NCBI GenBank assembly: GCA_965204575.1
Contig: OZ241993.1
Span: forward strand, 901,850 to 965,849
Length of the DNA: 64,000 nucleotides
From: an uncultured candidatus Porisulfidus sp.
GTDB lineage: Bacteria > Pseudomonadota > Gammaproteobacteria > Poriferisulfidales > Poriferisulfidaceae
Direction of reading: 5' to 3'
The first letter of the stretch is position 1; the number at the start of each line of letters is the position of its first letter. Both the position numbers and the translations under genes were made by a program. Below the pieces are notes generated by a model that worked only from the letters and a program-made list of their open reading frames with translations, was not told the origin of the DNA and made no database searches. Shown piece by piece: positions 10,027-44,428 of this stretch.

Positions 10027-10097
10027 TTAATCTGCATAGCGATAACCGACAAGCCTCTGGGTATGTACAGATCCTATGTGAAATTGGACAGTTCAAA

Positions 10098-10183
10098 TGG
10101 TGCCGATGGCCGGACTCGAACCGGCACGGCTTTCGCCACTGCCCCCTCAAGACAGCGTGTCTACCAGATTCCACCACATCGGC
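10098..10183 (-). tRNA. leuU: tRNA-Leu (anticodon GAG), class II, 86 nt including CCA
   Basis: Reverse complement is GCCGATGTGGTGGAATCTGGTAGACACGCTGTCTTGAGGGGGCAGTGGCGAAAGCCGTGCCGGTTCGAGTCCGGCCATCGGCACCA. 7-bp acceptor stem, anticodon loop TTGAGGG, long variable arm. Sits directly downstream of secG, as leuU does in E. coli. Coordinates ±1-2 nt. Confidence 0.85.
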
Positions 10184-10218
10184 ACTGCCTGCAGTATTAT
10201 CACAAAACGCGCCAAATC

Positions 10219-10587
10219 CTACTCAGGAATTTCTCCGGCTGGGCCCAATTCCGGTTCGAATTCCGAAATAACCGGCTGTTCCGGGATGCCGGGTTCGGGA
10301 AGGGCCTGCTCGGCTTCCGGTACGGCAATTTGCCCCATGAGGCTCTGTTCGGGTGGTGCGGTTTTGACGATCCACGCCAGCGCTAGGCAGTTGATGAAAA
10401 ACAGGGCAACGATGACGGCGGTGATCCGACTGAGAAAGGTTGCGCTTCCGCGTGCGCCGAAAACAGAACCGGAGGCGCCGCCGCCGAATGCTGCGCCGGT
10501 ATCCGCGCCCCGGCCGTGCTGCAGCAGCACCAGGCCGATGATGCTCAGCGACAGCAGGATCGCGGTGATGAGGAGGACGGTGTACAT
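10219..10587 (-). CDS. secG: preprotein translocase subunit SecG
   Basis: 122 aa. MYTVLLI ... LLQHGRGADTGAAFGGGASGSVFG is the SecG signature. Confidence 0.9.
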   Translation of the reverse strand: MYTVLLITAILLSLSIIGLVLLQHGRGADTGAAFGGGASGSVFGARGSATFLSRITAVIVALFFINCLALAWIVKTAPPEQSLMGQIAVPEAEQALPEPGIPEQPVISEFEPELGPAGEIPE

Positions 10588-12777: not shown

Positions 12778-14703
<1,926 letters not shown>

Positions 14704-14952
14704 GCGCGCTTTTCCCGGAAACCTTGGCCTTTCAGCATACTAGGATAGCAGATGGCGCGGGGACCGCGGGCGCATTCTGCTCCTGTAACGAGATATGGGG
14801 GAGCAGGCGGGGATTTCCAAGCCAAGACTAGGAGCGTTGCTCTCGAATGAGGTGCAACGACGATACGTGTCATTTCTAGCAACTGAAACATTATTTTCGG
14901 TACTTAACCAGTTTTGTGCATGTAATGAAAGTAAACGGAACATAGTTTGGTA

Positions 14953-15672
14953 TTACTGGGGCAGTGGTGGGGAAAAGAGATTTGAAACCGTAAAATCAGC
15001 GATCAAGTATGTCGATGCTGCAAAGATAACAAAAAGTGCCCATGCTGACACGACTGCTAGCCGGTAAAGGTTTCTAAAGATACTTTCTCCTGTTGTACCA
15101 TGTGTGAATCTATGCGCTAATCGAATCAGGAAATCAGATGCTAGGAGACTAGAAATGCCATTTGACACTGTATAGAAAAGAGGGCCAAGTGTTCCTATGG
15201 CAATTAATGTACCTAGGATGAAATAAGCTGTAGCTTGCCAAGACAAGATAATAGCGTTTTCGTTTGTCCAGAAAAGAACTCCCCCGGCACCAAGCCAGAC
15301 AAACATAACGAAGCCACCAACAAACTCTTTCCTTTTATCATCGGATTTATGGCGAATCCCATGAAGGACTTTTTGAAATTCGATAGATTGATTCTTATGG
15401 ATAGCCTCAATAACACTCAATGTCTCTTCTGCCTGTTTGTTGCTAGCTTCAATCAGAGTTTCAGAAATATTATGGAAGTGGGTCTCATGAATCGCGTCTA
15501 TAGATCTGATTGCTCTGATTTGCAACATTATTATTTCGGTTTGCTTGCCACTACTTTTGTGGAGATTTTCCATAAAGTCTTCAAGGACCTTATGAAATTG
15601 ATTTTCCTGAAACGTGTTAAGAGATCGAATCGTTTCTTCGATTGAGAGTTGCTCGTTCTCGTTTTTAGTCAT
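14953..15672 (-). CDS. hypothetical membrane protein with N-terminal helical repeats and 3-4 C-terminal TM helices
   Basis: 239 aa. Recurring motif about every 35 aa (NQFHKVLEDFMENLHK / ETHFHNISETLIEASNK / IEFQKVLHGIRHK). Hydrophobic C-terminal segments. AT-rich codon usage. No homology recognised. Confidence 0.45.
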   Translation of the reverse strand: MTKNENEQLSIEETIRSLNTFQENQFHKVLEDFMENLHKSSGKQTEIIMLQIRAIRSIDAIHETHFHNISETLIEASNKQAEETLSVIEAIHKNQSIEFQKVLHGIRHKSDDKRKEFVGGFVMFVWLGAGGVLFWTNENAIILSWQATAYFILGTLIAIGTLGPLFYTVSNGISSLLASDFLIRLAHRFTHGTTGESIFRNLYRLAVVSAWALFVIFAASTYLIADFTVSNLFSPPLPQ

Positions 15673-16513
15673 TAGTTTTTTTGGGCTTTTAGGCGCGTGT
15701 GCAGGTTACGGCGCAGAATTGGGCTAATTATGAAGCCCGTTATTCTAACGTTTGCGATTCTGATCGGTGTGCTTTGGGTATCCCGGTAGGGCGCGTGACC
15801 GAGATTTGCGCAGACTAACTATGGCTACCCTCCCTCTACAAAATTATCCCGGACTGGGACTGGGAGGATCGCACCCTATTCCATATTCCATGGCGACAAC
15901 CCGAAATTCCTGCGGGCGATTAACAGCAATTCTGATCGCCACCGGCCCGCCTTTCAAGAAAGGCAAAGATTTTCACGCCACGCCGACTAACCTGACATCC
16001 GACTCCAAGTTTCAGAATCAGTGGTTACGCTTAATGGTGGCGGGGTAGATAAGCAAGTTGTCCAGGTTCTTGGCAGGTCTGCGTGGATAATATCTATTCT
16101 GCAAATGTCTTTCGTGCATACTGCGCCTTGGTCTTTGCCACTTATAGTGAAAATTCACTAACCATTTCCTCTTGAAAATGACTCTTTGGGAAACTTTTCT
16201 ATGGTGGTTTATCTTGCCAGTTGGATGGCTGACGATAGCAGTGTTCCATTTGTCTGGCCAACGCTCTTTTTTGAAAATGCGTACATTGCATATTGGGCTT
16301 GGTCGATTTGGCTTACGATTGCTCTTGGAGATTTCACATCCGCCTTCCTTATCCGCCTTCCTTATGTATACTTATACCCACAATATGAAGGAAGGGGAAA
16401 ATCTATTATTGGGTGACAGCAGCAGTTTATTTCTGACGGCAGTCGGTGCAATAATGGAAGAACTGGCAATTCAGAAAATAAAGCTCACATTTAGTTTGAA
16501 AGGGTTGTTGCTG

Positions 16514-16789
16514 ATGAATAACCATATCAGAATAGTTGCGCTCTACCTGTTGGTTCTTGCTGGCCATCCTGCCTTTGCGGATGATGCTGAAGAAAAGAGA
16601 GATGCGTTCTATGAGAGACTTTCATATGACAGGCAGGCGATGTGCCATTTGATGGCAAAGGAGATACATTGGAGGTACTCGACTCCTAACGCGAAAAGTC
16701 TTTTGGTCTATGACAAATTAGCTCCGGCATTCTGCAAATGGTGCAAGGACTTGGACAAGGATCACTATCGGGCGGTCTGCCCAAAATAA
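16514..16789 (+). CDS. small secreted cysteine-containing protein (signal peptide MNNHIRIVALYLLVLAGHPAFA)
   Basis: 91 aa from an internal ATG of the 205-aa track ORF. Signal peptide followed by a charged domain with four Cys (CHLM ... CKWCKD ... VCPK). Confidence 0.3.
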   Translation: MNNHIRIVALYLLVLAGHPAFADDAEEKRDAFYERLSYDRQAMCHLMAKEIHWRYSTPNAKSLLVYDKLAPAFCKWCKDLDKDHYRAVCPK

Positions 16790-17356
16790 CGGCCAAATTT
16801 CGGTTGTAGTAGACTGAAAAGATGAAAATCATGCTTAATGGCTATTTCTGGTCCCATAAGAAGGCCGGGGAGAATGAAGGGGCATGGTCGTGTGACGAAT
16901 TGCCTCGTATATCAATAGTGAGTTACAAGGAGGGAAATAGTTTCAATCTTTATATTGATGGAACGATTTTTCTGGGGTGTTTTAGTGCCTTGAGTGGGGC
17001 AACAGCAGAAGCGGTGAATATCAACAATAATTTGAGTGGACAATTTGCCGAATAGGTGCTGGCTGCCCGCAATACCCAAGCATCAGCGAAATCCGTTATC
17101 CAGCGAAGCGATATTGTGCAAAGTCTCAATAGCACGTCTGGTTTGCTCTTATCATCCTCCGATGATTAATGCTTGGATGTTAGGGCCGTTTCTCTTCATA
17201 GAGGAGCCTCTTATCATTACCATTCCCGCGACAGTTTTCAGCATCATCGGTTCCACCTCCGGTGCGCTCGTAGTGATGCGCAGTCTTAGGGTCGGCGACT
17301 TATCCGGGAGGCTTTGATATTTGTGCGACTGCCGGGGCGCATCAATGGTTCGGATG

Positions 17357-18082
17357 ATGAAGTCGCACACCCTGTTCGTCTCCGACCTGCATCTGGACGC
17401 CAGTCGTCCGGCCCAGATGCAGGAATTCGTGCGTTTTCTGAAGAACGAGGCCCATCAGGCGCAGGCTCTGTACATCCTGGGCGACCTGTTCGAGTTCTGG
17501 ATCGGCGACGATGATCCCGCCGAAGGGCTGGACGAGGTGATCGATGCGCTTCAGGGGCTGACTGCGCAGGGTGTTTCCGTGAAATTCCTGCACGGCAACC
17601 GGGATTTCCTCTTGGGGGCCGATTTTGCCCGCCGGACCGGGATCGAGATCCTTCCGGCCCGTCAGGTGGTCGACCTGCATGGCATCCCCACCTTGATCGA
17701 ACATGGTGACCTGCTGTGCACGGATGACGTGGCCTACCAGCGCTACCGCCGGCGCATCCGCCATCCGGTCACGATGGCGCTGCTCGGAAACCTGCCCCGC
17801 TCATGGAGGCTGAGAATGGGTCAGCGCCTGCGCCGGATCAGCACCCAGGCGATCGCGGGGAAATCCCCGGACATCATGGACGTAAACGAGGAGGCGGTCC
17901 GCCAGGTGATGCGCTCGGAAGGGGTATACACGATGGTGCATGGGCATACGCACCGCCCGGCCATTCACGAATTCAAGGTGGACGAAGTGGAGGCCGTGCG
18001 GGCCGTGCTTGGGGACTGGTACGAACAGGGCAGCTGGCTGGTGGCCGATGCCGACGGCCTGCACCCGCAGTCGGCAACTTGA
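17357..18082 (+). CDS. lpxH: UDP-2,3-diacylglucosamine diphosphatase LpxH
   Basis: MKSHTLFVSDLHL ... LYILGDLFEFWIGDDDP ... HGNRDFLLG ... TDD ... HGHTHRP aligns with E. coli LpxH over its whole length. Start chosen at the ATG matching the E. coli N-terminus; the track ORF begins at TTG 17321. Confidence 0.85.
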   Translation: MKSHTLFVSDLHLDASRPAQMQEFVRFLKNEAHQAQALYILGDLFEFWIGDDDPAEGLDEVIDALQGLTAQGVSVKFLHGNRDFLLGADFARRTGIEILPARQVVDLHGIPTLIEHGDLLCTDDVAYQRYRRRIRHPVTMALLGNLPRSWRLRMGQRLRRISTQAIAGKSPDIMDVNEEAVRQVMRSEGVYTMVHGHTHRPAIHEFKVDEVEAVRAVLGDWYEQGSWLVADADGLHPQSAT

Positions 18083-23050: not shown

Positions 23051-23938
23051 TCAGTCCCTGTTTCTCAAGCCAAGGGCATGTAGCCAGGCATCAATTTGCC
23101 CGAATGCATCCTGCTGCCACTGATCGGGAGTCCTGCTTTGCAACGCACGGGTTCCCTCAACAAACTTTCTTACTGAAGTCGGTCCAAAACCATCGACCGT
23201 TTCGAACTTCTCGTCGATTGTCGTATAACTGTTTCTGCCATCTTCATGCTCCAGCATTGGTCTACAGGCTTTAGCCAGCGCGTTGGGGCCGCCTGGATAA
23301 TTGCGGATACAGTAGTAGATATCGTAAGCATCTTTCATCTTCAGCCGATTGCCGAGCGCGAAGCCTTTCATCACAAGAAATGCGGGAATGGATGCGGCTG
23401 CGATGCGGACGCGGTTGATGCCGCCTTCGGGCATAGGGCCATCAATGTCAATCATTTCAAAAAACTGCAAGGCGAGTTTGGCACCATCAGCTCTTTGGGC
23501 AGCGAAGCCGTCAATTAGTGGGGGCCGGTTTGGCACGATGTCAGCATCTTTTGGCATCAGGAAATCAACAACGATACTGATAGATGTGCCGCCATCTTTT
23601 GGCTGAATTCGCCGCACGAGTTGAAACTTCGCCCGCTTTTTATCCTGGGTATAGCCATGTTCAATCAGATCGGTAAGCAACTCCACATATTCGCCATTGC
23701 CAAGCGCTTCCGCATCAAGGACAAGATCAGCATCGGTTGTGCCGACATGTTGCATGTCTTTGCTGTTGAGGAGCAACCAAGGGATCGCCCCACCTATGAC
23801 TACGAATTTACCCCTGAAACTACCAAGAATCTGCCCGATCTCGACGAGGACAGATTTCACCGCCTCGGTTGTGCGGTCGTCATAATCAGCTGCTGATAGC
23901 GGTTCGCCGTCACGGAGGTCATTGCGTTTTATTGCCAC
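23051..23938 (-). CDS. nucleotidyltransferase, AbiEii/DUF1814-like toxin
   Basis: KFVVIGGAIPWLLLNSKDMQHVGTTDADLVLD matches the AbiEii GGTAL ... R.T.DIDL NTase motif. Start is uncertain: a GTG at 23938 overlaps the upstream gene's stop as GTGGCAATAA, whereas the track ORF extends to 23998. Confidence 0.55.
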   Translation of the reverse strand: MAIKRNDLRDGEPLSAADYDDRTTEAVKSVLVEIGQILGSFRGKFVVIGGAIPWLLLNSKDMQHVGTTDADLVLDAEALGNGEYVELLTDLIEHGYTQDKKRAKFQLVRRIQPKDGGTSISIVVDFLMPKDADIVPNRPPLIDGFAAQRADGAKLALQFFEMIDIDGPMPEGGINRVRIAAASIPAFLVMKGFALGNRLKMKDAYDIYYCIRNYPGGPNALAKACRPMLEHEDGRNSYTTIDEKFETVDGFGPTSVRKFVEGTRALQSRTPDQWQQDAFGQIDAWLHALGLRNRD

Positions 23939-24999
23939 GTCAGGACCTCTCGCCTCAAGTGCTCGGCTGCTTCCTCGCCTCGATCTCCGGAAATCCACAG
24001 ATCAAGGTAGGTCTGGACCGGATTCGTGCAAACCACGTTTGGCATAGGCTCCACCGAGTTTGCAAGCAAGCCCTGATTCTTTAAGATGAGAACTTCGACG
24101 TTTTCTCCCTTGTCAACGAGAGACGCATCAAGCACATCCTTGATTCGGGCGGCTCCCTTCCTGTCAGCATAGAAGTAGTGGGTGCCTGTCCGGGCGTAAG
24201 GCGCAATCCAAAGTGCGGCCGAAAAAGACGCGAATGCGGTGTGGCAGTCAAACAGCGGCGCCGAGAATATCTCTTTGGTGGCTTTCTCGAAGGCCGATCC
24301 ATGGAGATGGGTATAAAACTTTTCGATGCTGCCGGACGGGCGGGAATAGATTTCACGCCACGCGTTCAGCAGTGAATCAGGGTCGGCAAGAGCCATGCCG
24401 TCGTCCCCGATTTCCACCCACTTGCGTTCCAGCAACAATTTGCGGACGTTACTGACCTGGCCGAGGCTGGATTCTGCGGCCTCGGCGAGTTCCGCTACCC
24501 GCCAGGTACGCTTCGAATCACTGAGCATGACGTGCAGGATTTCTGCTGCCTTCGGGCTGAACAGCGACTTCAGTGCTCGCTTCTCTGAGGCAGGCCGTCC
24601 CGGGACACTGACGTCGATCAGAATCCCTGGGGCCTGAAAGAATGCATTTCCATGGAGGTCGAGATAGTTAATGCCATATTCGCCACAGATCTCGCGGGAC
24701 TTTTCCGAGAGAAAAGGGGCGATCAGAACAGGCAACGCATCGATATCCATGCGAGCAATGGCATCGTGGAGTTGCAATGCGCCATGGTGTGCGTGGCGCG
24801 GTTCACCGTTGCTTTTCACCTCGCAGACAATCTTGTAGGGCTGGTTGAAGGCACGAATTGATACAAGAAAATCCACGTAGCGGTTAGTGCCGCTAACGCA
24901 TGCCCCGGCGTCAATCTTGTCGACTTTAATTTCTGGATTACGGCTGAACAAGTTTTGCAAGCTCTCAACAGCCAGTGCCATGATGTCTATCTCTTTCAT
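23929..24999 (-). CDS. AbiEi-like antitoxin/regulator with an extra N-terminal PD-(D/E)xK-like domain and a central wHTH
   Basis: 356 aa. N-terminal D-FLVS ... IVCEVK resembles a PD-(D/E)xK core. The middle RTWRVAELAEAAESSLGQVSNVRKLLLERKWVE looks like a wHTH. The C-terminal LLANSVEPMPNVVCTNPVQTYLDLW resembles the AbiEi C-terminal domain. Located immediately upstream of the NTase. Confidence 0.45.
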   Translation of the reverse strand: MKEIDIMALAVESLQNLFSRNPEIKVDKIDAGACVSGTNRYVDFLVSIRAFNQPYKIVCEVKSNGEPRHAHHGALQLHDAIARMDIDALPVLIAPFLSEKSREICGEYGINYLDLHGNAFFQAPGILIDVSVPGRPASEKRALKSLFSPKAAEILHVMLSDSKRTWRVAELAEAAESSLGQVSNVRKLLLERKWVEIGDDGMALADPDSLLNAWREIYSRPSGSIEKFYTHLHGSAFEKATKEIFSAPLFDCHTAFASFSAALWIAPYARTGTHYFYADRKGAARIKDVLDASLVDKGENVEVLILKNQGLLANSVEPMPNVVCTNPVQTYLDLWISGDRGEEAAEHLRREVLTWQ

Positions 25000-34163: not shown

Positions 34164-34816
34164 TACGGGTTGCCGAAGCGGTCGAACAGCCAGGGGGCGT
34201 GCGCCCGCCGTGCCGCTTCGAATTCGCGGATCCGGTCCGAGTGATGCAGGGTCAGCGCGATGTCGTCGAGCCCTTCGACCAGGCAGCGCTTGCGCTGCGG
34301 ATCGATGTCGAACGACCAGGTCGCACCGGAATCCGCCGTCACCGTCTGTTCCGGCAGGTCGATGTCCAGCCGGTAGCCTTCGGTTTGTTCGACCTCCTCG
34401 ACGAGCGTGCGCACGGCATCCTCCGGCAGCCGGATGGTCAGCAGGCCGTTTTTGGCGGCGTTGGTGTCGAAGATGTCCGCGAAACTCGGCGCGATGACGA
34501 CCCGGAAACCGGCGTCCAGGAACGCCCAGACCGCGTGTTCGCGCGAGGAACCGCAGCCGAAGTTGGCGCCGGTGACCAAAATGGAAGCCTCCCGGTAGCG
34601 GGACTGGTTCAGCACGAAATCCGGGTTGCGCGGGCGCCGGGAGTGGTCGCTCTCCAGGTCGCCGGGCGCCAGGTAGCGCCAGCTGTCGAACAGGTTCGGC
34701 CCGAACCCGGTCCGCTTGACCGACTTCAGGTACTGCTTGGGGATGATCACGTCGGTGTCGATGTTGCTCCGGTCAAGCGGCGCGACGATCCCGCGGTGGC
34801 GGACGAAAGGGGTCAT
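34163..34816 (-). CDS. leuD: 3-isopropylmalate dehydratase small subunit
   Basis: Start [28 protein letters not shown]. The track ORF 34163..35014 is an upstream extension. ATGA overlap with the leuC stop. Confidence 0.85.
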
Positions 34817-36222
34817 GCCAGGTATTCCCGCACGTCGACGAAATGCCCGGCGCAGGCGGCCGCGGCAGCCATCGCCGGGCTGACCAGGTGGGTGCGCCCG
34901 CCCTCGCCCTGGCGGCCCTCGAAGTTGCGGTTGGAGGTGGCGGCGCAGCGCTCGCCGGGCTCCAGCCGGTCGGCGTTCATGGCCAGGCACATCGAACAGC
35001 CCGGTTCCCGCCATTCGAAGCCGGCCTCGGTAAAGATCCGGTCCAGCCCTTCCGATTCGGCCTGCGCCTTGACCCGCCCGGAGCCGGGGACGACCAGGGC
35101 TTGGCGGATATTGTCCGCGCAGTGCCGCCCGCGGACGACCGCGGCGGCTTCGCGCAGGTCCTCGATGCGGGCGTTGGTACAGGAACCGATAAAAATTCGA
35201 TCCAGTTCAAGGCCGGTGACCGTTTCGCCGCCTTCCAGGCCCATGTAGTTCAGTGCGGCCTTCATGTCGTCGGCACGCGCAGAGTCTTCCGCCTCCTCGG
35301 GGCGGGGCACGGTCGCACCGACCGGCACGACCATCTCCGGCGACGTGCCCCAGGTGACCTGGGGAGCCAGCTCGCCGGCCTGCAGCACCACGGCACGCTC
35401 GAACACGGCATCGCCGTCCGAGCGCAGTTCGCGCCACCGCCGTTCGGCCTCTTCCCAGGCGGCGCCTTCGGGCGCATAGGTCCGCCCGCGAACGTATTCG
35501 AGGGTGACGTCGTCGACCGCGACCAGGCCGGAACGCGCGCCGGCCTCGATCGCCATGTTGCACAGGGTCATGCGGGACTCCATGCTCATGGCTTCCACCG
35601 CCTGTCCGGCGAATTCGATGGCGCAGCCGGTGCCGCCTGCCGCGCCGATGCTGCCGATCAGGGCGAGCGCCAGGTCCTTGGCGCCGACGCCGGGCGCGGC
35701 GCGGCCCTCGAGGCGCACCAGCATGTTGGCCGGCTTGCGCACCGGCAGGCACTGGGTGGCCAGGACGTGCTCCACCTGCGAGGTGCCGATGCCGAACGCC
35801 AGCGTTGCCAGCGCACCGTGCGTGGAGGTGTGCGAGTCGCCGCAGACGACGGTCATGCCGGGCAGGGTGATGCCCTGCTCCGGGCCGATCACGTGCACGA
35901 TGCCTTGGCGCGGGTCCCCCATCGGGAATTCCAGCAGGCCGTACTCGGCGCAGTTGGCGTCCAGGACCTCGACCTGGTGGCGCGAGACCGCATCGGGGAT
36001 CTCCTCGAGATCCGGCTCGGTCGGAACGTTATGGTCGGCCACCGCAACGATGCTGTCGGGTCGCCAGGGCGCACGGCCAGCCAGGCGCAGGCCCTCGAAG
36101 GCCTGCGGCGAAGTGACTTCGTGGACCAGCTGGCAGTCGATGTACAGCAGGGTGGTGCCGTCTTCGGCCGTCTGCACCGCGTGCTCGTCCCAAAGTTTGT
36201 CGTACAGGGTACGCCCGGACAT
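34813..36222 (-). CDS. leuC: 3-isopropylmalate dehydratase large subunit
   Basis: 469 aa. Aconitase-family motifs, DSHT ... GIGTSQ ... CNMAIE. Confidence 0.9.
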
Positions 36223-36343
36223 GGTCTGTTTTTCGCTCCGCGCCTAATGCACGGCGATTATAGAGGACGGAGGGGGTTTAAGGGGTGTTTTTGGTGTGTG
36301 GTGTGGCGACCCGAAACGCCGCTTTTTTCGCCATTATTCTTCC

Positions 36344-36610
36344 TTACCGGTAAATTTCGCGCCGGTTGCCCACCTGCACGACGAGTACGCGCAAAGTGTC
36401 GTCCTGAATGTCGCAAATCACCCGGCAATCGCCCACCCGGTAACGCCAGAAATTGCCAAGCGGGCCGGTCAATGCCTTACCCGTGCTACGTGGATTTTCC
36501 AATCCAGCAATGCGTCTGTCCATGAAATCGACGATGCGCCGTGCCGTCTGCTTGTCGAGCTTGCGGAGCTGCCTTTTAGCCGTATCGGCGTAATCAATCG
36601 TCCAAGCCAA
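36344..36610 (-). CDS. type II toxin, RelE/ParE family
   Basis: 88 aa. Small basic protein with the RelE/ParE-like topology. Overlaps the upstream antitoxin gene by 17 nt. Confidence 0.65.
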   Translation of the reverse strand: MAWTIDYADTAKRQLRKLDKQTARRIVDFMDRRIAGLENPRSTGKALTGPLGNFWRYRVGDCRVICDIQDDTLRVLVVQVGNRREIYR

Positions 36611-36821
36611 GGTCCTTCCTTACGTCAGCCGCCGAATGCACCTGTTCCTGTCCCTTGCGGATACGTTCCAACACGTCAGCGGCAAGGTAGTAGTCCTCCA
36701 TCTCCTCAATGCCATGCTCGATGATTTCCCGCAGGTAGTAAGCCTTGGTGCGTCCGGTTTGCGAGGCGAGGTAGTCAAGCCTTTGCTCTGTTTCCGGGTT
36801 TAGGCGAATAGAAGTCGCCAT
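36594..36821 (-). CDS. type II antitoxin (RHH, RelB/ParD-like)
   Basis: Start at MATSIRLNPETEQRLDYLA ... The ribbon-helix-helix N-terminus matches RelB/ParD. The track ORF begins 27 nt further upstream. Confidence 0.55.
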   Translation of the reverse strand: MATSIRLNPETEQRLDYLASQTGRTKAYYLREIIEHGIEEMEDYYLAADVLERIRKGQEQVHSAADVRKDLGLDD

Positions 36822-36946
36822 GTCGCAGTCCCTCTCTTCAAGATTCAATACATGTATTCATTATATCACAAAATCGTCGCGAAAGGCTTCGGCCGAACTG
36901 GCAATGGAACATAAAAGAGGTTTGAATCATATATTTATATGCTTTC

Positions 36947-37624
36947 TCATGTGGTTGCGTGTGGATCGAACCGGGCTTGGGCATCGGTTAGGCGTTCGAC
37001 GGTCCCGACATCCACCCACCGTCCACGAAAATGCTCGCCGCTCACTTGCCCGCCGCGGATGGCGGCCTGCAGCAGGGGCGCCAGCGGGAAACGTCCGGAT
37101 TCGCACGCATCGAACAGGCGAGGGCGATAGAAGCCGATCCCGGCGAACGTCAGGCGAGTTCCGGGTTGTTCCCGGACGCGGCCATCCTCGTAGTGGAAAT
37201 CTCCTTCAGGGTGGTGTGCCGGGTTGTCGACCATAACCAGGTGCACATCGTCGCCGTTGGCCAACGGCGGGGCGGAGAATCGGTAGTTGGTGCAGACGTC
37301 CGCATTGACGACCCAGAACGGGTTCGGCCCCAGCAGCGGGAGTGCCTGATGGATGCCGCCGCCGGTCTCCAGCGGGGGAGAGGGTTCGGGGGAGTAGAGG
37401 ATGCGGACGCCGAATTCCTCCCCGTCTCCCAAGGCGTCGCGAATCTGTTCCCCCAGGTGCGACAGGTTGATGACCACGTCTTCGATCCCGACCTCCCGCA
37501 GGGCTCGAAGGTGGCGCACGATCAGGGGTTCGCCGGCGACTTCCAAAAGCGCTTTCGGCGTAGTGTCGGTCAAAGGTCGCAGGCGCTCCCCGCGCCCGGC
37601 CGACAAAATCATGGCCGCGGGCAT
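36947..37624 (-). CDS. murU: N-acetylmuramate alpha-1-phosphate uridylyltransferase
   Basis: 225 aa. AMILSAGRGERLRPLTDTTPKAL NTP-transferase motif. Paired with amgK as in Pseudomonas. Confidence 0.8.
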   Translation of the reverse strand: MPAAMILSAGRGERLRPLTDTTPKALLEVAGEPLIVRHLRALREVGIEDVVINLSHLGEQIRDALGDGEEFGVRILYSPEPSPPLETGGGIHQALPLLGPNPFWVVNADVCTNYRFSAPPLANGDDVHLVMVDNPAHHPEGDFHYEDGRVREQPGTRLTFAGIGFYRPRLFDACESGRFPLAPLLQAAIRGGQVSGEHFRGRWVDVGTVERLTDAQARFDPHATT

Positions 37625-37625
37625 G

Positions 37626-38600
37626 TCAGGGCTCCGGCAGCCGTGCCACCAGTTCCGCCAAGGGTTGCAGGGGCGGGTAGTTCGAGCAGACGTCCTGAAC
37701 GTAGCCCAGGACGCGGGGCACGTCCAGCATGAAATAAGGCTTGCCGTCCCGGTGGCACAGCCGGGCGAAGATGCCGACTGCTTTCAGGTGGCGTTGCACC
37801 CCCATCCAGTCGAACCATTCCAGGAAGAGCCCGGAATCTACATTTTCATCGAGGATGCCTTGCTGCCGGGCACGCTGCCGGTACTGTTCCACCCAGCCCC
37901 GGACCCGCTCGTCGGGCCAGGCGATGTAGCAGTCCCGAAGCAGGGAGACCAGGTCGTAGGTGACGGGCCCCCACATCGCGTCCTGGTGGTCGATGATGCC
38001 GGGGTTGGGTTCGGTCACCATCAGGTTCCGCGAGTGGTAGTCGCGGTGGACCACCACGCACGGTTGCTCCAGGGCGCGGTCGACCAGCAACTGCCAGGCC
38101 GTCTCGATCATGAGCCGGTCCTCAGGGCTTAATTCCCAGCTGAGGTGACGGCCGAGATACCAATCGGTGAACCGGTCGAGTTCCAGGCGCAGCTGTTTCG
38201 CGTCGTATGGCGGCAGCGGGCCGCGCGGCAGCGCCTGGATGCGCAATAAGGCATCAAGGGCATCGCCGTACAGTGCGTCCGCCGATTCCTCGTTCAGGTG
38301 CGGCAGGTACTGTTCGTCCCCGAGGTCCTCGATCAGCAGGAAGCCGTCCGCGTGGTTTTCCGCCTGGATCTCCGGGGCATGCACGCCTGCTTTCCGCAGG
38401 TGCGCGTTGGCGGTAAGGAAAGGCTCCAGCGGTTCGTGTTCCGGCGGGGCGTCCATTGCAATCCGGGTGGGATTCACGCCGTGCACGCGGAAATAGCGGC
38501 GAAAGCTGGCATCGCCCGCCACTTGGCGGAGTTCCAGTTCCGCATCCTGCAGGGTATGGCGCACCCAGTCCCGCAGCTGTTCCTGTCTTGAATCCGTCAC
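37626..38600 (-). CDS. amgK: N-acetylmuramate/N-acetylglucosamine anomeric kinase
   Basis: 324 aa. APH-like kinase fold (DASFRRYFRV ... HRDYHSRNLM ... DHQD). Confidence 0.8.
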   Translation of the reverse strand: MTDSRQEQLRDWVRHTLQDAELELRQVAGDASFRRYFRVHGVNPTRIAMDAPPEHEPLEPFLTANAHLRKAGVHAPEIQAENHADGFLLIEDLGDEQYLPHLNEESADALYGDALDALLRIQALPRGPLPPYDAKQLRLELDRFTDWYLGRHLSWELSPEDRLMIETAWQLLVDRALEQPCVVVHRDYHSRNLMVTEPNPGIIDHQDAMWGPVTYDLVSLLRDCYIAWPDERVRGWVEQYRQRARQQGILDENVDSGLFLEWFDWMGVQRHLKAVGIFARLCHRDGKPYFMLDVPRVLGYVQDVCSNYPPLQPLAELVARLPEP

Positions 38601-38622
38601 GATTTCCCGAAGCCGACAATCC

Positions 38623-39054
38623 TCAATATTGCGCCGCTGCGTAATCGGCCAGCGTCACAACCAGCCTGCCGTGTTCGGTCGGCTCCAGCCTGTCGGCAAA
38701 CCTGCCGTCCTCCGTCACTACGGTCGCCCCTATGCGTTGAGCCAGTGCGAGGTACATGCAGTCGTAGGCGGGATGCTCCAACGCCAGCGCGAGGCGAAGC
38801 GCGTCCGCGCAAATCGTCTCATCGGCGCTCCAGAGAACGGGCATTTCCGGCATTGCGAGCAACAGGGCGCCTGCTTCGTTCCGCGTGATTTCGCCGCGGC
38901 GGGTCTTGTTCCACAACGCATTGGCAACTTCTGATGCCATCAACCGCGGAGCATGGATCTCGTCATTGCCCTCCAGAAGCTTCCGCGCCATGTCCGAGCG
39001 GTCCTCGTCGACCAGCCATTTGGTCGCCACACTGGCGTCGACGACTAAACGCAT
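38623..39054 (-). CDS. vapC: PIN-domain ribonuclease toxin VapC
   Basis: 143 aa. MRLVVDASV ... acidic PIN residues (D6, E, D). ATGA overlap with the upstream antitoxin. Confidence 0.75.
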   Translation of the reverse strand: MRLVVDASVATKWLVDEDRSDMARKLLEGNDEIHAPRLMASEVANALWNKTRRGEITRNEAGALLLAMPEMPVLWSADETICADALRLALALEHPAYDCMYLALAQRIGATVVTEDGRFADRLEPTEHGRLVVTLADYAAAQY

Positions 39055-39311
39055 CAGGAATCACGGTGGCCGTGGTCGCGGTCTTCGCGAATGATCTCCT
39101 CTGCCGGCGTATGCGTACGCCCCCGGGTCATCTGCCGCAGCCGGTCCGACAGCGCAAGGAACGAGGCGCGTTTCACCACCATGTCGTCTTCAATGGCGTT
39201 TTCGAGAATGTGGCGGGCTTCGCCCTCTAGGGAGCGATGGTTCAGGGAGGCCCGCCGCTTGAGGCGCTCGACCACGCCCTCTTCGAGCCTCCGTACGTTA
39301 ATCGTGGGCAT
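39054..39311 (-). CDS. vapB: VapB-type antitoxin (FitA/Arc-like RHH)
   Basis: 85 aa. INVRRLEEGVVERLKRRASLNHRSLEGEARHIL is the FitA/StbC-like RHH. Confidence 0.6.
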   Translation of the reverse strand: MPTINVRRLEEGVVERLKRRASLNHRSLEGEARHILENAIEDDMVVKRASFLALSDRLRQMTRGRTHTPAEEIIREDRDHGHRDS

Positions 39312-39429
39312 TGTTCCGCTCCTTCATCTATCAAAATGATAGCACATGGGGGAGAAACCAGGCAACGGAAATCGCCCAAGAGAAGCACTGTCATACTGGG
39401 ATAGGCCGGTTATGTATCGGTCATCTCAA

Positions 39430-39721
39430 GATTGGAGATCTATTTGTCGCACTCGCACCGGTAGGGGTACGTCTGGACCGTCAGATCAACCCCTTGCTTT
39501 ATACCGCAGAAGAATATGACTCTCGCCGGTCGGCCAAAACCTGTTTTTGTCTCGTGTGTTTGCCGGTGAATACTTGGTTCTTATTGGAGACGAAAATGAC
39601 GCACCCGAAACTCGATAACCTGGTTCACATCGGGCAACTCAAGGCAAGTTGGCTACGGCTGCCGAAAGAGTCGGGTCTTACTGGAGGATGCTTTCTTCTG
39701 TGGACAATCGCTACCCGGTGA
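39430..39721 (+). pseudogene. decayed partial duplicate of the MNT 3' end / HEPN 5' end junction
   Basis: DNA 39550-39650 (ttgtctcgtgtgtttgccggtgaatacttggttcttattggagacgaaaATGacgcacccgaaactcgataacctggttcacatcgggcaactcaagg) is clearly homologous to 40600-40700 (ctgtcccgtgtgttcgctggcgaatgcctggtccttatcggcgaagaagATGgcgcacccgcaacttgacaacttggtgaaaatcggccgcctcaagg). Protein LDRQINPLLYTAEEYDSRRS ~ LDRKISPALYTVQEFTARRS. Truncated by higA. Confidence 0.55.
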
Positions 39722-40001
39722 GTTGCGGCTGATATCGTTCGACGCGAATTCGGTCTTCGTCCTTGCGAGCTTGGGCAAGGTTCCAAGCCGTTTGTCGGCG
39801 TAGCCAGAACTCGGCACTGGACCAGCCCGCCTTCTCCAGGCGAATAGCCATTTCTGGAGAAATCGCCGCGTGCCCGTTGAGGACTCGCGAGAGAGTGTGA
39901 CGGGCGACGCCCAGAGTCCGTGCCGCTCCGGTCACGCTCAAGCCGAGCGGTTCCAGGCAGTTCTCCCGGATGCTGCGTCCTGGATGTGGCGGATTGTTCA
40001 T
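39711..40001 (-). CDS. higA: HigA-family antitoxin (HTH-XRE), apparently orphan
   Basis: [70 protein letters not shown] matches the HigA consensus. There is no HigB-sized ORF in the 40 nt before the next gene. Confidence 0.7.
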
Positions 40002-40065
40002 TGCCATGCCGTTGCGAAGCTCCACGTGATCTTATTATTATATGTTACCTAAATAAGGCACTATA

Positions 40066-40674
40066 ATGCCCATTATGGGTATATCCACTAGTCTCGCTGG
40101 CGCACTGTTCACCAAGACCCAGCAGAAAGTTCTGGCCCTGCTTTTTGGCCAGCCGGACCGTAGCTTTTATACCAAGGAACTGATCGGACTGACTGGCTCC
40201 GGCTCTGGGGCAGTGCAGCGCGAATTGAAACGCTTGACCTCCAGTGGCTTGGTTAGGATGACCCCGGTCGGGGCGCAGAAGCATTATCAGGCCAACCCCG
40301 ATTGCCCCGTGTATCACGAACTCGTCAGCGTCATGCGAAAGACGGTTGCGGTGGCAGAACCGATCCGGCAGGCACTAAACCCAGTCGCTGACCGCATCAG
40401 GCTGGCCATGGTCTACGGCTCTGTCGCACAGGGCACGGATACGGCGGAAAGCGACATTGACCTGCTTGTCATTGCTGACGACCTGATGCTAGAGGAACTC
40501 TATGCCACGCTTGCGCCGGTAGAGGCACGCTTGGACCGCAAGATCAGTCCTGCACTCTATACGGTACAGGAGTTCACTGCCCGCCGATCGTCCGGGAACC
40601 CATTCCTGTCCCGTGTGTTCGCTGGCGAATGCCTGGTCCTTATCGGCGAAGAAGATGGCGCACCCGCAACTTGA
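40066..40674 (+). CDS. minimal nucleotidyltransferase (MNT) antitoxin with N-terminal wHTH
   Basis: 202 aa. GSVAQGTDTAESDIDLLV is the GSxxRG ... SDIDL NTase signature. Stop overlaps the HEPN start. Confidence 0.7.
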   Translation: MPIMGISTSLAGALFTKTQQKVLALLFGQPDRSFYTKELIGLTGSGSGAVQRELKRLTSSGLVRMTPVGAQKHYQANPDCPVYHELVSVMRKTVAVAEPIRQALNPVADRIRLAMVYGSVAQGTDTAESDIDLLVIADDLMLEELYATLAPVEARLDRKISPALYTVQEFTARRSSGNPFLSRVFAGECLVLIGEEDGAPAT

Positions 40675-41077
40675 CAACTTGGTGAAAATCGGCCGCCTCA
40701 AGGTCGAGTCGGCCACTACGGAGGAAATCGAGGGCCTGCTGCGATCAGGTCAGCGCCGCCTTGACGACGCTCAGCGACGGGAGCTCAGCTTGGAAAGCCG
40801 CTTCGACCTTGGTTACAACGCAGCTCACGCGATTGCGCTTTCGGCCTTGCGAGCCCACGGCTACCGCTCCGATTCGCGCTATCTGGTTTTTCAGTGTCTG
40901 CAACATACGGTTGACCTGCCTGCGGAACAGTGGCGGGTGCTGGATCATGCTCACCGCAAGCGGAACTTGACTGAATACGAAGGTGCAACGGATGTGGACG
41001 AACAACTCCTCAACGCATTGCTAAGGGTGGCGCAAAAAGTCGCTGCGCGCGTGAGTCGCTTGTTGGTGCAACGGTGA
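40655..41077 (+). CDS. HEPN-like toxin partner of the MNT
   Basis: Start at MAHPQLDNL (a 20-nt overlap with the MNT gene). Helical protein with the H-x-H-R-K-R-N-x-T-E-Y segment in the usual Rx4-6H position. Confidence 0.5.
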   Translation: MAHPQLDNLVKIGRLKVESATTEEIEGLLRSGQRRLDDAQRRELSLESRFDLGYNAAHAIALSALRAHGYRSDSRYLVFQCLQHTVDLPAEQWRVLDHAHRKRNLTEYEGATDVDEQLLNALLRVAQKVAARVSRLLVQR

Positions 41078-41188
41078 AGAAAGAATGGGCTCTGGAAGTT
41101 TGGATGGAGTATAGTGGCGCTTTCCAAGTGATGGCCTTTCCGGTTTTCGCGACAACCCGGTAAAGACTGCCTGATCTCGTCTGGAACG

Positions 41189-44101
41189 ATGCCGAAAGCG
41201 ATCACCACCGAGCCTGCCTTCAACCTTGAACTCAGTCGGGTTTTGCGCCAAAAGCATCCCCGCTGGAAAAATGCGATTGGAGCAGAACAGGTGAGGGTTT
41301 TGCGGGGTCAGCCTCAGAAACAGCCGGACATCGTCCTTTCCCCCGCAGGCAGTTCCCCGGTGGTGCTCGAAACCGAGTTTCTACCTGCCGCTACCGTGGA
41401 AAGCGACGCTGTAGCTCGCTTGGGTGGCATCTTGGCAAGTGATGATCGGAAGATTGAGCAAGCCATTGCCCTGCGGATTCCGAAGGACTTGCGCACTGTT
41501 CCGCAGGCGGAACTGACTGAAGCTATTGAAAATGCACAGTTTACTTACTGCATTCTTTGTGTTGGGGAAGCCGATGCTGTCGAGCGTCTGCCGAAAAGAG
41601 ACTGGCTGTGTGGCGGCATTGACGATGTAGCAGCTTGCGCCGACTTGGCTTCCCTGTCCGAGGCGTTAGTGCTGAAAAGTACGGATGCATTAGAACTCGG
41701 AGTGGCCCAAGCGGCCAATTTGCTGGAGTCTCTCCCGGGTTGCCCGGACAGAAAACTGGGACGTAAACTCTGCCAGGAACCGGGTGAACAGACGAACCGA
41801 ATGGCGGTTGCCATCATCGCCAATGCGTTGGTGTTCCACCTATGCGTTGAAGGACGACAGGGCATTCCCCGGTTGAGCGAACTCGAGTCGGCTCAGGGGC
41901 GGTTGACCAAGCTTAAAGTTCGACAATGCTGGATGCGGATCCTCTATGAGATCAATTACTGGCCAATTTTCAGCATCGCCACAGAACTTCTGGAATGTAT
42001 GCCATCCAACACGGCCAACGCGGTGCTTAACTGTCTTTACAAAACAGCAGATGAGTTACTCGAACTTGGGGCGGTCAGGTTGAACGACCTGTCGGGTCGG
42101 ATGTTCCAGAAGTTGATCACTGACCGCAAGTTTCTCGCGACTTTCTACACCCTGCCCGTTTCCGCGACCATGCTCGCGGAACTGGTTGCATCCCGATTGC
42201 AGGTTGATTGGCGAAGTAGGGAATCCGTAACAAATCTAAAAATCGCCGATTTGGCTTGTGGTACCGGAACGCTTGTGGGAGCCCTATACCAGTCGGTCTT
42301 GGCCCGATGCCGTCGTGCCGGACAGGACGATGCTGAAATTCACTCGATCATGATTGAGGATGCGTTATACGCTTTCGACATCATGCCGGCCGCGACGCAT
42401 CTCGCGGCCTCAACCTTGTCCGGAGCCCATCCCGGTATCACTTTCGGAGAGACGAAGGTTGTGACCATGCCATACGGACATGGCGAAGACCATCCGTTGA
42501 GTTTGGGCTCGCTAGATTTAATCATGAACGAGAGCGTCCTTTCCTTATTCAGTTTGAGCCGGGAACAGTTGGTGGGTGGGAAAGGAATCAAGGCAGACAC
42601 CGAAATCAGCGTGCCTCAGAAATCGCTGGACATCATCATCATGAATCCGCCGTTCACCCGCCCTTGTGGGCAGGAAGCGGCCAAGGTCGGTATCCCAGTG
42701 CCTTCTTTCGCAGGCTTTGGCACTTCGGAAGAAGAGCAAAAGGCCATGTCGGAGAAGCTACGGGAAATAGGCAAGAAATTGAAAAAATCCCGGATAAAAA
42801 TCGACCCGATAAGAGGGGTGCTTGCGGGACATGGGAATGCGGGCTTGGCATCAAACTTTATTGACCTTGCGCACGAAAAACTGCGGGAAGGAGGAATTCT
42901 GGCGCTGGTGCTGCCTTTCACGTTCGTCCAAGGGGATGCTTGGCATGGCGCCCGCTCCCTGCTCAAGGCCTACTACAAGAACATCGTGATTGTTTCCATT
43001 GCAACAACGGGTGAAACCGAAAGGGCGTTTTCTGCAGATACGGGCATGGCCGAAGTCTTAGTGGTCGCTGAGCGAAAAGAGGCCAGCGACGTGGCACAGC
43101 CGGCAGGTTCGGTGGAATATGCCAACCTGACACGCCGTCCCGACTCCTTGCTCGAAGCTTCTCTTTTGGCGAAGCATATCCATGGCTCGACACCCGACGA
43201 GGAAATCAGCCGCATCGATGCATCCATATCCAGCGGAGGGTGCGCGGGAGTACGGTCCGTCTCAAGCCTAGGAACAACTATGCTCGGTTTGTTCAAGACG
43301 GGTTCTATCAAATTCCCAAGAAGGAAAGGCGGGATTGCTTTGCCGGTGACCCCGCTGGGAGACCTCGGAGAGCGAGGAGCCCATGTTCTGGACATTACAG
43401 GAAATCCGCCAAGCCCCGGGAAACCGCCTAGGGGGCCATTCGACAAGGCCCCCCTTCCAAGAGATGGTTTTCCCACCTATCCCGCGCTCTGGAACCACGA
43501 TGCGAAAAAGGAAACGTGCTTGATGGTTGAGCCGGATGGCCAAGGCAATGTCCGGGAAGGGTGTGCAGACCGAGCCGATGATTTCTGGAACCAGTTTTCT
43601 TCGAAGTTGCATGTCAACGTTGATTTCCGACTGAACTCACAGTCGCTTGCGGCCTGCCTGACACCAAAGAAAACAATAGGAGGGCGCGCTTGGCCGAATT
43701 TTCGGCTTCACGAAACAGCTTGGGAGATTCCGGTGGTACTTTGGGCCAACACGACTATTGGGCTAATGGCTTTCTGGTGGATCGGGTCTCGCCAGCAACA
43801 AGGCAGGTCCATTCTTCCCGTGTCTCAGCATGAACGGTTTCCAGTGCTGGACCCACGTCGTTTGGAATCAGACCAAGTCAAGCGAGTGGGGAGAATCTTC
43901 CGGGATTTTCTGACGAAAGACTTCCTTCCCGCGAATGAGGCTTACCGGGATGATGTGCGAAAAGCGTTGGACCGAGCAATGTTGGTCGATTTGATTGGAG
44001 TTTCGGAGAATGTGCTGGAGTCGCTTGATTTGCTGCGAGACCAATGGTGCGCCGAGCCAAGCGTTCATGGAGGGAAAAGTACCCGACCAGATTCACTGTG
44101 A
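41189..44101 (+). CDS. 970-aa multidomain gamma-class N6-adenine DNA methyltransferase fusion (Type IIG/IIL-like restriction-modification candidate or standalone defence methyltransferase)
   Basis: Motif I IADLACGTGTLVGALY (about aa 350) and motif IV IIIMNPPFTRP (about aa 478) in gamma-class order. About 340-aa N-terminal domain with a possible degenerate nuclease core (PDIVLS ... VVLETEF). About 480-aa C-terminal region is plausibly a target-recognition domain. No separate R or S gene adjacent. Confidence 0.55.
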   Translation: MPKAITTEPAFNLELSRVLRQKHPRWKNAIGAEQVRVLRGQPQKQPDIVLSPAGSSPVVLETEFLPAATVESDAVARLGGILASDDRKIEQAIALRIPKDLRTVPQAELTEAIENAQFTYCILCVGEADAVERLPKRDWLCGGIDDVAACADLASLSEALVLKSTDALELGVAQAANLLESLPGCPDRKLGRKLCQEPGEQTNRMAVAIIANALVFHLCVEGRQGIPRLSELESAQGRLTKLKVRQCWMRILYEINYWPIFSIATELLECMPSNTANAVLNCLYKTADELLELGAVRLNDLSGRMFQKLITDRKFLATFYTLPVSATMLAELVASRLQVDWRSRESVTNLKIADLACGTGTLVGALYQSVLARCRRAGQDDAEIHSIMIEDALYAFDIMPAATHLAASTLSGAHPGITFGETKVVTMPYGHGEDHPLSLGSLDLIMNESVLSLFSLSREQLVGGKGIKADTEISVPQKSLDIIIMNPPFTRPCGQEAAKVGIPVPSFAGFGTSEEEQKAMSEKLREIGKKLKKSRIKIDPIRGVLAGHGNAGLASNFIDLAHEKLREGGILALVLPFTFVQGDAWHGARSLLKAYYKNIVIVSIATTGETERAFSADTGMAEVLVVAERKEASDVAQPAGSVEYANLTRRPDSLLEASLLAKHIHGSTPDEEISRIDASISSGGCAGVRSVSSLGTTMLGLFKTGSIKFPRRKGGIALPVTPLGDLGERGAHVLDITGNPPSPGKPPRGPFDKAPLPRDGFPTYPALWNHDAKKETCLMVEPDGQGNVREGCADRADDFWNQFSSKLHVNVDFRLNSQSLAACLTPKKTIGGRAWPNFRLHETAWEIPVVLWANTTIGLMAFWWIGSRQQQGRSILPVSQHERFPVLDPRRLESDQVKRVGRIFRDFLTKDFLPANEAYRDDVRKALDRAMLVDLIGVSENVLESLDLLRDQWCAEPSVHGGKSTRPDSL

Positions 44102-44221
44102 AGCGAGTCCTTCCGGTTCTTGGCTCCATCCGTCCGTGTTTATAGGGTTCTTTGACATATCAGTTACAATACGCCGCCCAACGATGCCCATGGCGTTGCC
44201 GCATTTTTTGAGGAAGTCCGA

Positions 44222-44428
44222 ATGGCCGTCCAGAAAAGCAAAAAGAGCCGCTCCAAGCGCGACATGCGCCGCTCGCACCATGCCCTGAAAGGGGCCACGG
44301 TGTCGGAAGATCCGACCACGGGCACGCGGCACCGCCGCCACCATATCGCCGCCGACGGCTATTACCGGGGCCGCAAGGTTCTCGAAATCAAGCAGCCGAA
44401 AGAGGAGCCGGCCGAAACGGAAGCCTGA
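44222..44428 (+). CDS. rpmF: 50S ribosomal protein L32
   Basis: [23 protein letters not shown] ... [14 protein letters not shown] is near-identical in pattern to E. coli L32. Confidence 0.9.

Follow-up and report, generated by a model that had tools for sequence, protein, structure and literature searches.

Variable toxin–antitoxin and defence cargo at two intergenic sites flanking amgK-murU in Candidatus Porisulfidus

How does the chromosome of a sponge symbiont come to hold several toxin–antitoxin (TA) modules close together among its core genes? The question is raised by positions 36344–41077 of a 64,000-nt stretch of DNA, here called the window, from Candidatus Porisulfidus, a sponge-symbiont gammaproteobacterium. 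The preliminary description of the window had read this locus as a TA hotspot between leuC and rpmF, with RelBE, VapBC, an orphan HigA and a pair of a minimal nucleotidyltransferase (MNT) and a HEPN protein scattered around the conserved amgK-murU pair, and had proposed a defence/addiction island embedded in core synteny. The named open reading frames (ORFs) are all present, and homology searches place every one of them in its proposed family rather than among unrelated small regulators; leuC, amgK-murU and rpmF do border the locus. The conserved flanks and the variable cargo seen in eleven relatives agree with the proposed island, except that the cargo is divided between two sites. We consider it highly probable that these sites, murU|leuC and amgK|rpmF, are integrase-free cargo hotspots in which TA and defence cassettes have repeatedly been gained, exchanged and eroded.

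A search with AmgK returned ten genomes at 75–93% identity, labelled Candidatus Porisulfidus or sponge-associated Gammaproteobacteria/Chromatiales metagenome-assembled genomes; the complete chromosomes among them are 1.5–2.0 Mb long. The comparison set comprises eleven Porisulfidus relatives (L001–L010 and L013), in which synteny was mapped by tblastn and blastn. L013 is a sister assembly, a 93-kb scaffold (ENA ERZ23495174 scaffold_831) ~96% identical to the window. A Logan contig (L014, SRR13587046), stored separately from the ENA scaffold, repeats the L013 layout and was left out of the set. Both show relBE-murU-amgK-vapCB and, further on, MNT-HEPN, the gene of a 970-aa protein and rpmF, and the occurrence of this order in two separately stored assemblies argues that the layout is no assembly artefact.

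Two insertion sites in a conserved gene order

The series asd-leuB-leuD-leuC-murU-amgK is syntenic in all eleven relatives, and rpmF-plsX follows beyond it in ten (not in L004). In the window, leuC occupies 34813–36222 on the reverse strand, with a gap of 121 nt to relE. On the same strand, murU (36947–37624; MurU equivalog NF045761, 288.6 bits, above the cutoff of 250) and amgK (37626–38600; NF045759 over the full length at 2e-83, below the equivalog cutoff) form a conserved core pair, found in L001–L013, that divides the two insertion sites. On the other side, rpmF (44222–44428, forward strand) is followed by plsX, also on the forward strand. The guanine-plus-cytosine (GC) content is 65–70% in the core genes, 51–56% in relBE, ~62% in vapBC and 52–58% between 39.3 and 44.2 kb. 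The cargo amounts to three TA pairs that are intact and one that is broken, an orphan antitoxin and a restriction-type enzyme.

Alignment to relatives delimits the first insertion (site A, 36294–36952) as a relBE cassette between the murU stop codon and the leuC promoter. L001, L002 and L006 align with the window up to 36293 and pick up again at ~36952–36967. The site is empty in five of the eleven relatives (L001, L002, L004, L006 and L010), where the spacer measures only 79–87 bp; relBE fills it in the window and in five others (L003, L005, L007, L009 and L013), and L008 has relB alone, with relE deleted. All genomes compared retain the TATAAT box of leuC, which in those with relBE lies downstream of the insertion.

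The second insertion (site B, 38601–44153) takes in all variable cargo from the amgK start to the rpmF upstream region, as set by the limits of core homology. Homology to the core of L001–L010 stops at 38594 in all ten (at 38573 in L010) and returns at 44150–44159 in the nine that have rpmF there (not L004). The cargo between these limits differs from genome to genome: MNT-HEPN only in L001, L006 and L009; MNT only in L005; MNT-HEPN with a complete higBA in L008; MNT-HEPN with an orphan higA, a DUF4268 protein and an RNase T-like exonuclease in L007; MNT-HEPN with an N6/N4 methyltransferase and an unannotated neighbour in L003; MNT only, together with an insertion sequence (IS), Fic/DOC, Dcm and a neighbour, in L010, the one relative with a DDE transposase at this site; an MscS channel only in L002; and vapBC, MNT-HEPN and the 970-aa gene in the window and L013. 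MNT-HEPN is a widespread resident of site B and is probably ancestral. In L004 (1–10000), groEL, purH, DprA-like and rhodanese-like genes abut amgK instead of rpmF-plsX, so site B is also a chromosomal rearrangement breakpoint.

The clustering goes beyond chance, because a single other TA-like pair (AbiE-like) occurs among the ORFs scanned in the remaining ~59 kb of the window, and because eleven relatives with shared flanks carry different cargo at exactly both sites. No integrase or IS was found in the window cargo, and no tRNA lies within 26 kb of the hotspot. A repeat search found neither insertion to be bounded by terminal repeats, direct or inverted, and returned only short pairs at chance level, with the exception of the MNT-HEPN remnant described below; an Rfam search over 35.5–45 kb returned no RNA family at E ≤ 0.1. 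The most likely route of entry for the cassettes would be recombination in the conserved core genes on either side, in some cases with an illegitimate join at one end.

Protein families of the cargo

The cassette at site A consists of two overlapping genes on the reverse strand. The downstream gene, relE (36344–36610), starts with TTG and encodes a predicted mRNA-interferase toxin of the RelE/StbE type, 88 aa long, with matches to PF05016 (1.3e-14, 54.9 bits against a cutoff of 23), TIGR02385 (29.7 bits, cutoff 27.9) and PHROG 1213, 'RelE-like toxin' (1.5e-27). Its closest solved relative in the PDB is 2khe (1.8e-25), and M. tuberculosis Rv2866 and RelE are also matched. Residues R56, R58, R83, R84 and Y87, noted by inspection only, are candidates for the catalytic-type basic residues and the C-terminal Tyr of RelE. 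ParE, a gyrase poison, was considered for this toxin and rejected, RelE being favoured by TIGR02385, the RelE relatives in the PDB and the C-terminal RREIYR. The upstream gene, relB (36594–36821), overlaps relE by 17 nt and encodes a ribbon-helix-helix (RHH) antitoxin of 75 aa (NF048017 RelB-like, 1.6e-30, 105 bits, cutoff 50; also DUF6290 and RHH_1), with GAGAGGGA in front of its ATG. The relB-murU spacer of 125 nt is AT-rich, and the palindrome scan located in it a 16-bp palindrome, TCAATACATGTATTCA (36845–36860), 24 nt upstream of relB, which is a candidate RelB operator. RelE would be a ribosome-dependent mRNA-cleaving toxin curbed by its RHH antitoxin.

The part of site B next to amgK is taken up by vapBC, again on the reverse strand. 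The gene vapC (38623–39054), whose end is separated from the amgK start by 22 nt, encodes a predicted PIN-domain toxin of 143 aa (PF01850, 5.6e-17, 62.9 bits, cutoff 23.6). Its closest solved structure is 2fe1 in the PDB, the PIN protein PAE0151 (1.6e-15), the acidic residues D6, E42, D98 and D116 are present by inspection, and an exact-sequence look-up returned no record. Upstream, with an overlap of 1 nt, vapB (39054–39311) encodes a FitA-like RHH antitoxin of 85 aa (PF22513, 1.1e-12, 48.2 bits, cutoff 27; Arc, 1.5e-4), and the two proteins would act as a PIN RNase paired with its antitoxin. Promoter and palindrome scans located a promoter-like site on the reverse strand (TTGCCT-18-TATCAT, 39328–39365) that overlaps the palindrome CTATCA-AAA-TGATAG, a putative VapB operator. 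Among the genomes compared, vapBC is restricted to the window and the sister assemblies L013 and L014.

The insertion of vapBC bears on the expression of the core pair. The native upstream region of amgK has been replaced in the window, where no homology to its counterpart in relatives is left, and no promoter-like site was found within vapC. For both reasons amgK-murU is probably co-transcribed with the module from the vapB promoter. Where relatives lack vapBC, amgK and the gene of the MNT, a protein with a winged helix-turn-helix (wHTH) domain, point away from each other across a spacer of only ~60–120 nt (~9880–10001 in L001). Being either divergent from MNT or placed behind vapBC, these cell-wall-recycling core genes would always share a control region with a TA module.

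Further into site B, higA (39711–40007, reverse strand) was identified by family matches as an antitoxin of the XRE helix-turn-helix type, 98 aa long and without a cognate higB. It matches TIGR02607 (4.3e-28, 97 bits, cutoff 47.7) and, in the PDB, E. coli CFT073 HigA (2icp, 6.9e-17) as well as P. putida GraA and Proteus HigA. Its identity to HigA of L007 and L008 is 95% in amino acids and ~90% in nucleotides. In L008, an intact HigB (PF05015, 2.2e-18) stands directly upstream of HigA at the same site; a tblastn search with this HigB found no higB remnant in the window, which upholds the earlier statement that HigA has no HigB there. Since HigB is intact in this relative, the orphan state of HigA in the window reflects toxin loss. 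DNA homology to the L008 higBA extends only to 40008, a single base beyond the start codon of higA. The 58 nt between higA and MNT (40008–40065) form a junction and divergent promoter region with promoter-like sites on both strands. Positions 40036–40081 align with DNA upstream of MNT in L001, L005 and L006, and the match to this type of MNT-HEPN allele continues into the genes themselves. The overlapping gene boundaries ascribed earlier to all four modules are found in relBE, vapBC and MNT/HEPN, the last with 20 nt; HigA is unpaired.

The remaining TA pair lies on the forward strand. MNT (40066–40674), the presumed antitoxin, is a 202-aa protein made of an ArsR-like wHTH and a minimal nucleotidyltransferase, identified by PADLOC as PDC-M05A (PDLC04368, 4.2e-79, 263 bits, residues 7–198). 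It matches Polbeta (33.8 bits, cutoff 26.9) and NTP_transf_2, with a weak ArsR-like match at the N terminus, and the GSx10DxD motif is intact (G118-S119...D130-I-D132). Its score against the NCBIfam MntA equivalog is 31.3 bits, below the cutoff of 60. The adjacent gene (40655–41077), overlapping MNT by 20 nt, encodes the presumed toxin, a HEPN-fold partner of 140 aa that PADLOC assigns to PDC-M05B (PDLC04373, 6e-62, 205.8 bits, residues 15–151). The window thus has the adjacent M05A (wHTH-nucleotidyltransferase) and M05B genes by which PADLOC recognizes PDC-M05. PDC-M05 has been described as a TA-like combination of nucleotidyltransferase and HEPN with an unconfirmed antiviral role (PMC12988326), and one cold-seep representative gave E. 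coli protection from at least one phage (bioRxiv 10.1101/2024.09.26.614923).

Sequence searches alone do not place the partner in the HEPN superfamily: it has no match in Pfam, NCBIfam or PHROGs, and searches against the PDB with the single sequence and with a profile gave nothing but spurious matches, through repeats, to TIM barrels designed de novo. Its family numbers more than 3600 homologues, one JGI record of which names UPF0332; a literature search on HEPN plus UPF0332 returned nothing. The fold was recognized in an AlphaFold2 model built with 46 homologues, which is all-helical and has a predicted local distance difference test score (pLDDT) of 94.9 and a predicted template modelling score (pTM) of 0.90. 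The best Foldseek match in the PDB is the HEPN protein AF0298 (2hsb, TMq 0.69, root-mean-square deviation 2.7 Å), and further top folds are TT1696 (1ufb) and the HepT toxins of MNT-HEPN complexes (7ae9, 7bxo, 6m6w and 5yep). The HEPN matches have probabilities of 0.99–1.0 at modest E-values (best 3e-3), and the top matches are almost all HEPN proteins.

In the partner family, H58, H84, H100, E107, E109 and G110 are invariant, and R101, R103 and Y108 nearly so. The family consensus reads H100-R-K-R-N-L-A-E-Y108-E-G, where RKRNLAEY covers residues 101–108, and the window has T at 106. The canonical Rx4-6H motif is absent: the position expected to hold the His is Ala/Thr or Tyr, depending on the register. 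Canonically, the AMPylated Tyr is expected two residues past the His, and the partner keeps the nearly invariant Y108. In HEPN proteins of the AF0298 type (HEPN-T family), the motif His is missing, the basic residue is kept and a second conserved His, in an insert between helices 2 and 3, has been proposed as an alternative active site (Anantharaman et al., PMC3710099). H84 lies in this insert in the AlphaFold2 model, and the partner resembles this AF0298-like variant with the invariant H84 as the putative alternative His. Because both the canonical motif and an MntA score above the equivalog cutoff are lacking, the pair is filed as PDC-M05, an AF0298-like HEPN-MNT that is HepT/MntA-like and no canonical member. 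MNT would probably neutralize a HEPN RNase in a manner similar to type VII pairs, plausibly by AMPylating Y108, and regulate its own operon through the wHTH domain.

The window also holds the debris of a second MNT-HEPN pair. A pseudogene remnant at ~39425–39668 (forward strand), located by blastn and tblastn, comprises the 3' end of MNT and the first ~25 codons of HEPN, with reading frames fused by 1-nt deletions; tblastn aligns it to MNT residues 140–202 in two frames and to HEPN residues 1–16. It is ~240 bp long, and is 84% identical in nucleotides to the MNT/HEPN junction of L003; the catalytic 5' portion of MNT is missing from it, as is most of HEPN. The remnant lies in the 399-nt gap between vapB and higA. 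The MNT-HEPN label given earlier holds for the MNT motif and the HEPN fold, with the amendments that the HEPN is a non-canonical one of the AF0298 type and that this decayed second copy had been overlooked. An ORF of 136 aa at 39311–39721 (forward strand) was considered as a real gene and ruled out as a frameshifted read-through of the MNT'/HEPN' remnant.

Beyond the locus proper, the adjacent cargo is a gene for a single chain of 970 aa (41189–44101, forward strand), by predicted fold a type IIG-like restriction-modification (RM) enzyme or a methyltransferase. Matches to methyltransferase hidden Markov models are weak. The protein belongs to a very large family without a name, which counts more than 6000 homologues of ~955–985 aa; many of these carry PF07669 Eco57I, and members occur alone in mobile or defence contexts. 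In the AlphaFold2 model (pLDDT 83), the best fold match is the type IIG enzyme BpuSI (7.6e-15), followed by PglX/BrxX, DrdV, LlaBIII and CamA; the motifs DLACGTG and NPPF stand at 354 and 486, and an N-terminal alpha/beta domain has invariant D47/E61/E63 (ExE rather than ExK). As judged from the model, the protein has the probable architecture of type IIG RM, in keeping with the methyltransferase fusion and with the defence half of the preliminary description. Like vapBC, the gene occurs only in the lineage of the window, and it has a stop codon in the sister strain L013. On an unrelated 2.4-Mb contig (L015), a 970-aa homologue lies ~4.4 kb from a FitA-like/PIN pair, beside a TrwC relaxase (13301–13985, 6001–8868), which suggests that these cargo types travel together on mobile elements.

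Selection, allele replacement and toxin loss

Ratios of non-synonymous to synonymous substitution rates (dN/dS), computed pairwise by the Nei-Gojobori method, are low in all modules: 0.09–0.31 for relE in all of its five comparisons but that with L005 (0.62, at a dS of just 0.03), 0.08–0.28 for relB, 0.21 for vapC, 0.13 for vapB, 0.07–0.09 for higA, 0.11–0.15 for MNT and 0.07–0.14 for HEPN, against 0.06–0.20 for core genes. TA genes thus evolve under purifying selection near core values, and the modules appear to be functional now or to have been so recently. Between the window and L013, relE, higA, MNT and HEPN have dS of 0.33–0.64, leuC, plsX, murU and amgK of 0.03–0.18, and vapBC diverges at the core rate. 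The TA dS well above core dS points to allele replacement at fixed sites. The murU of the window and L013 is only ~80% identical to that of all other relatives, and leuC is 92–99% identical to all relatives except L010 (84%). Together with the dS contrast between the window and L013 over 31.5–50 kb, the contrast of murU and leuC suggests recombination tracts around the hotspots.

The decay of the modules follows one direction. Every loss of a single partner affects the toxin: relE in L008, HEPN in L005 and L010, and higB in the window, L007 and L013. Loss of an antitoxin alone is never seen across the genomes compared. This pattern is the one that addiction logic predicts if the toxins are active, and toxin-first decay is indirect evolutionary evidence that they are. 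Decay has gone further in L013 than in the window: higA is truncated there, the MNT-HEPN remnant is gone and the 970-aa gene is interrupted.

The simplest reading of these observations gives the following history of site B. The ancestor might have been arranged as in L008, amgK | MNT-HEPN | higA-higB | rpmF. The insertion of vapBC would have cut the old MNT short, and a second MNT-HEPN allele, of the type seen in L001, L005 and L006, would then have been imported along with the 970-aa gene, replacing higB. This import likely involved a homologous crossover in the rpmF flank and an illegitimate join at the higA start.

Alternative explanations and relation to known systems

Several observations weigh against the reading of two integrase-free hotspots filled by TA and defence cassettes. 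The lack of flanking repeats, integrase, tRNA or IS in the window island makes the insertion mechanism an inferred one. Pairwise dN/dS cannot show that orphan antitoxins have remained constrained since toxin loss. The MNT score falls short of the MntA equivalog, and the HEPN partner, with no canonical Rx4-6H His and no Pfam HEPN match, is less certain to be an RNase than HepT.

Could the small ORFs instead be ordinary transcription factors, RHH and XRE regulators and a stand-alone nucleotidyltransferase? HigA is unpaired and might by now serve only as a regulator, MNT has a wHTH domain, and its HEPN partner has no Pfam match; yet each putative regulator except HigA lies directly upstream of, and overlaps, a gene of a toxin family (RelE, PIN or the HEPN fold), HigA itself has an intact HigB partner in L008, and decay always takes the toxin-side gene, as addiction logic would have it. 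We regard this explanation as highly improbable. Acquisition of the whole segment at once, as an integrative island or prophage remnant, is very unlikely. Cargo GC is uniformly below that of the core, and the sister strain has vapBC, MNT-HEPN and the 970-aa gene together, but amgK-murU, core-like in GC and synteny, split the cargo into two sites, and each module has its own pattern of presence and absence among relatives: MNT-HEPN occurs in most species of the genus, whereas vapBC and the 970-aa gene are lineage-specific. The integrase, tRNA, IS or terminal repeats of a single mobile element were not found either. Least credible of all is an artefact of metagenome assembly or binning that joined foreign contigs into a chimera, an explanation in line with the several blocks of deviant GC in the window (42% at 1–10400 among them) and contradicted by the same gene order in the ~96% identical ENA scaffold and the Logan contig and by relatives, complete chromosomes included, that share the flanks and subsets of the cargo.

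A possible, though not the likelier, alternative concerns function: the modules might serve mainly in anti-phage abortive infection or defence, carried by PDC-M05 and the type IIG-like enzyme, to which RelBE and VapBC would be accessory, and not as addiction modules or selfish elements. The PADLOC match of MNT/HEPN to PDC-M05, one homologue of which protected E. coli from at least one phage, the type IIG-like fold of the 970-aa neighbour and the RM genes of relatives at the same site all point this way, and enrichment of TA, RM and defence genes has already been reported for sponge symbionts (PMC5649159, PMC5099237). RelBE and VapBC, however, have no PADLOC match, the sister strain already has a disrupted 970-aa gene, and defence and addiction roles are not mutually exclusive. 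More doubtful is an extension of the two-hotspot reading in which PDC-M05 would be a genus-wide, long-term resident with an alternative HEPN site (H84 with R101/R103) and TA insertions would rewire core genes. If true, it would put amgK-murU under the TA-autoregulated promoter of vapBC and tie cell-wall recycling in a sponge symbiont to its TA state.

Elsewhere in the window, other regions deviate in composition. Positions 1–10400 have 42% GC (0.31–0.44 at third codon positions, GC3) against ~67% in the core and encode DUF7714, a ComA phosphosulfolactate synthase, a lyase of the fumarate/argininosuccinate type, a glutathione S-transferase and a YbfB-type transporter of the major facilitator superfamily; the block ends at tRNA-Leu(gag) (10098–10183, reverse strand) and looks like a tRNA-flanked foreign island or an assembly mis-join. 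A pair at 23051–24999 (reverse strand), in an island of 53% GC at 22.3–25.4 kb, has weak matches to AbiEii (PF08843, 1.6e-5) and AbiEi_2 (8.8e-4) and may be a type IV TA or abortive-infection module. At 14500–17600, an island of 47% GC contains ORFs of 239, 205, 93, 93, 77 and 67 aa with no Pfam match.

The components of the locus add new members to families already known, their genomic context is of a familiar kind, and no current concept is changed by them. The value of the locus is that of an example and a source of testable constructs: it is a compact natural record of TA and defence cassette turnover in a reduced symbiont genome, with the same two intergenic gaps used again and again across the genus, an exchange of alleles among closely related strains and, perhaps, the capture of housekeeping genes by a TA operon. 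PDC-M05 is widespread yet little studied experimentally, and the pair in the window is a tractable example with a non-canonical HEPN.

As a whole, the two sites resemble defence islands and hotspots flanked by core genes in their conserved flanks, variable cargo (TA, RM, Fic/DOC and IS), lower GC and turnover at the level of strains. They differ in being very small (0.1–6.5 kb), in that no integrase or attachment site was found, in their setting in a reduced symbiont genome of 1.5–2.0 Mb and in the near-permanent residence of MNT-HEPN. The RelBE cassette agrees with type II RelBE in its RelE-fold toxin, upstream RHH antitoxin, gene overlap and palindrome in the promoter region, and R83/R84/Y87 near the C terminus of the toxin may be a further point of agreement; nothing structural sets it apart, and its peculiarities are the TTG start of the toxin and its position, on the chromosome of a symbiont, just in front of the leuC promoter. 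VapBC likewise has the marks of type II VapBC/FitAB, namely a PIN protein with four acidic residues, an upstream FitA-like RHH, the 1-nt overlap and a palindromic operator-like site, but sits 22 nt upstream of amgK, where it displaces the native upstream region. HigA corresponds over its full length to the antitoxin of type II HigBA, whose canonical operon, with higB ahead of higA, occupies this site in L008, whereas in the window HigB is missing and the upstream DNA has been swapped for the imported MNT-HEPN promoter region. Type VII HepT/MntA is matched by an MNT with GSx10DxD upstream of and overlapping a small HEPN-fold gene, and by HepT structural neighbours; the pair in the window departs from it in the N-terminal ArsR-like wHTH of MNT, the sub-cutoff MntA score and a HEPN without the Rx4-6H His.

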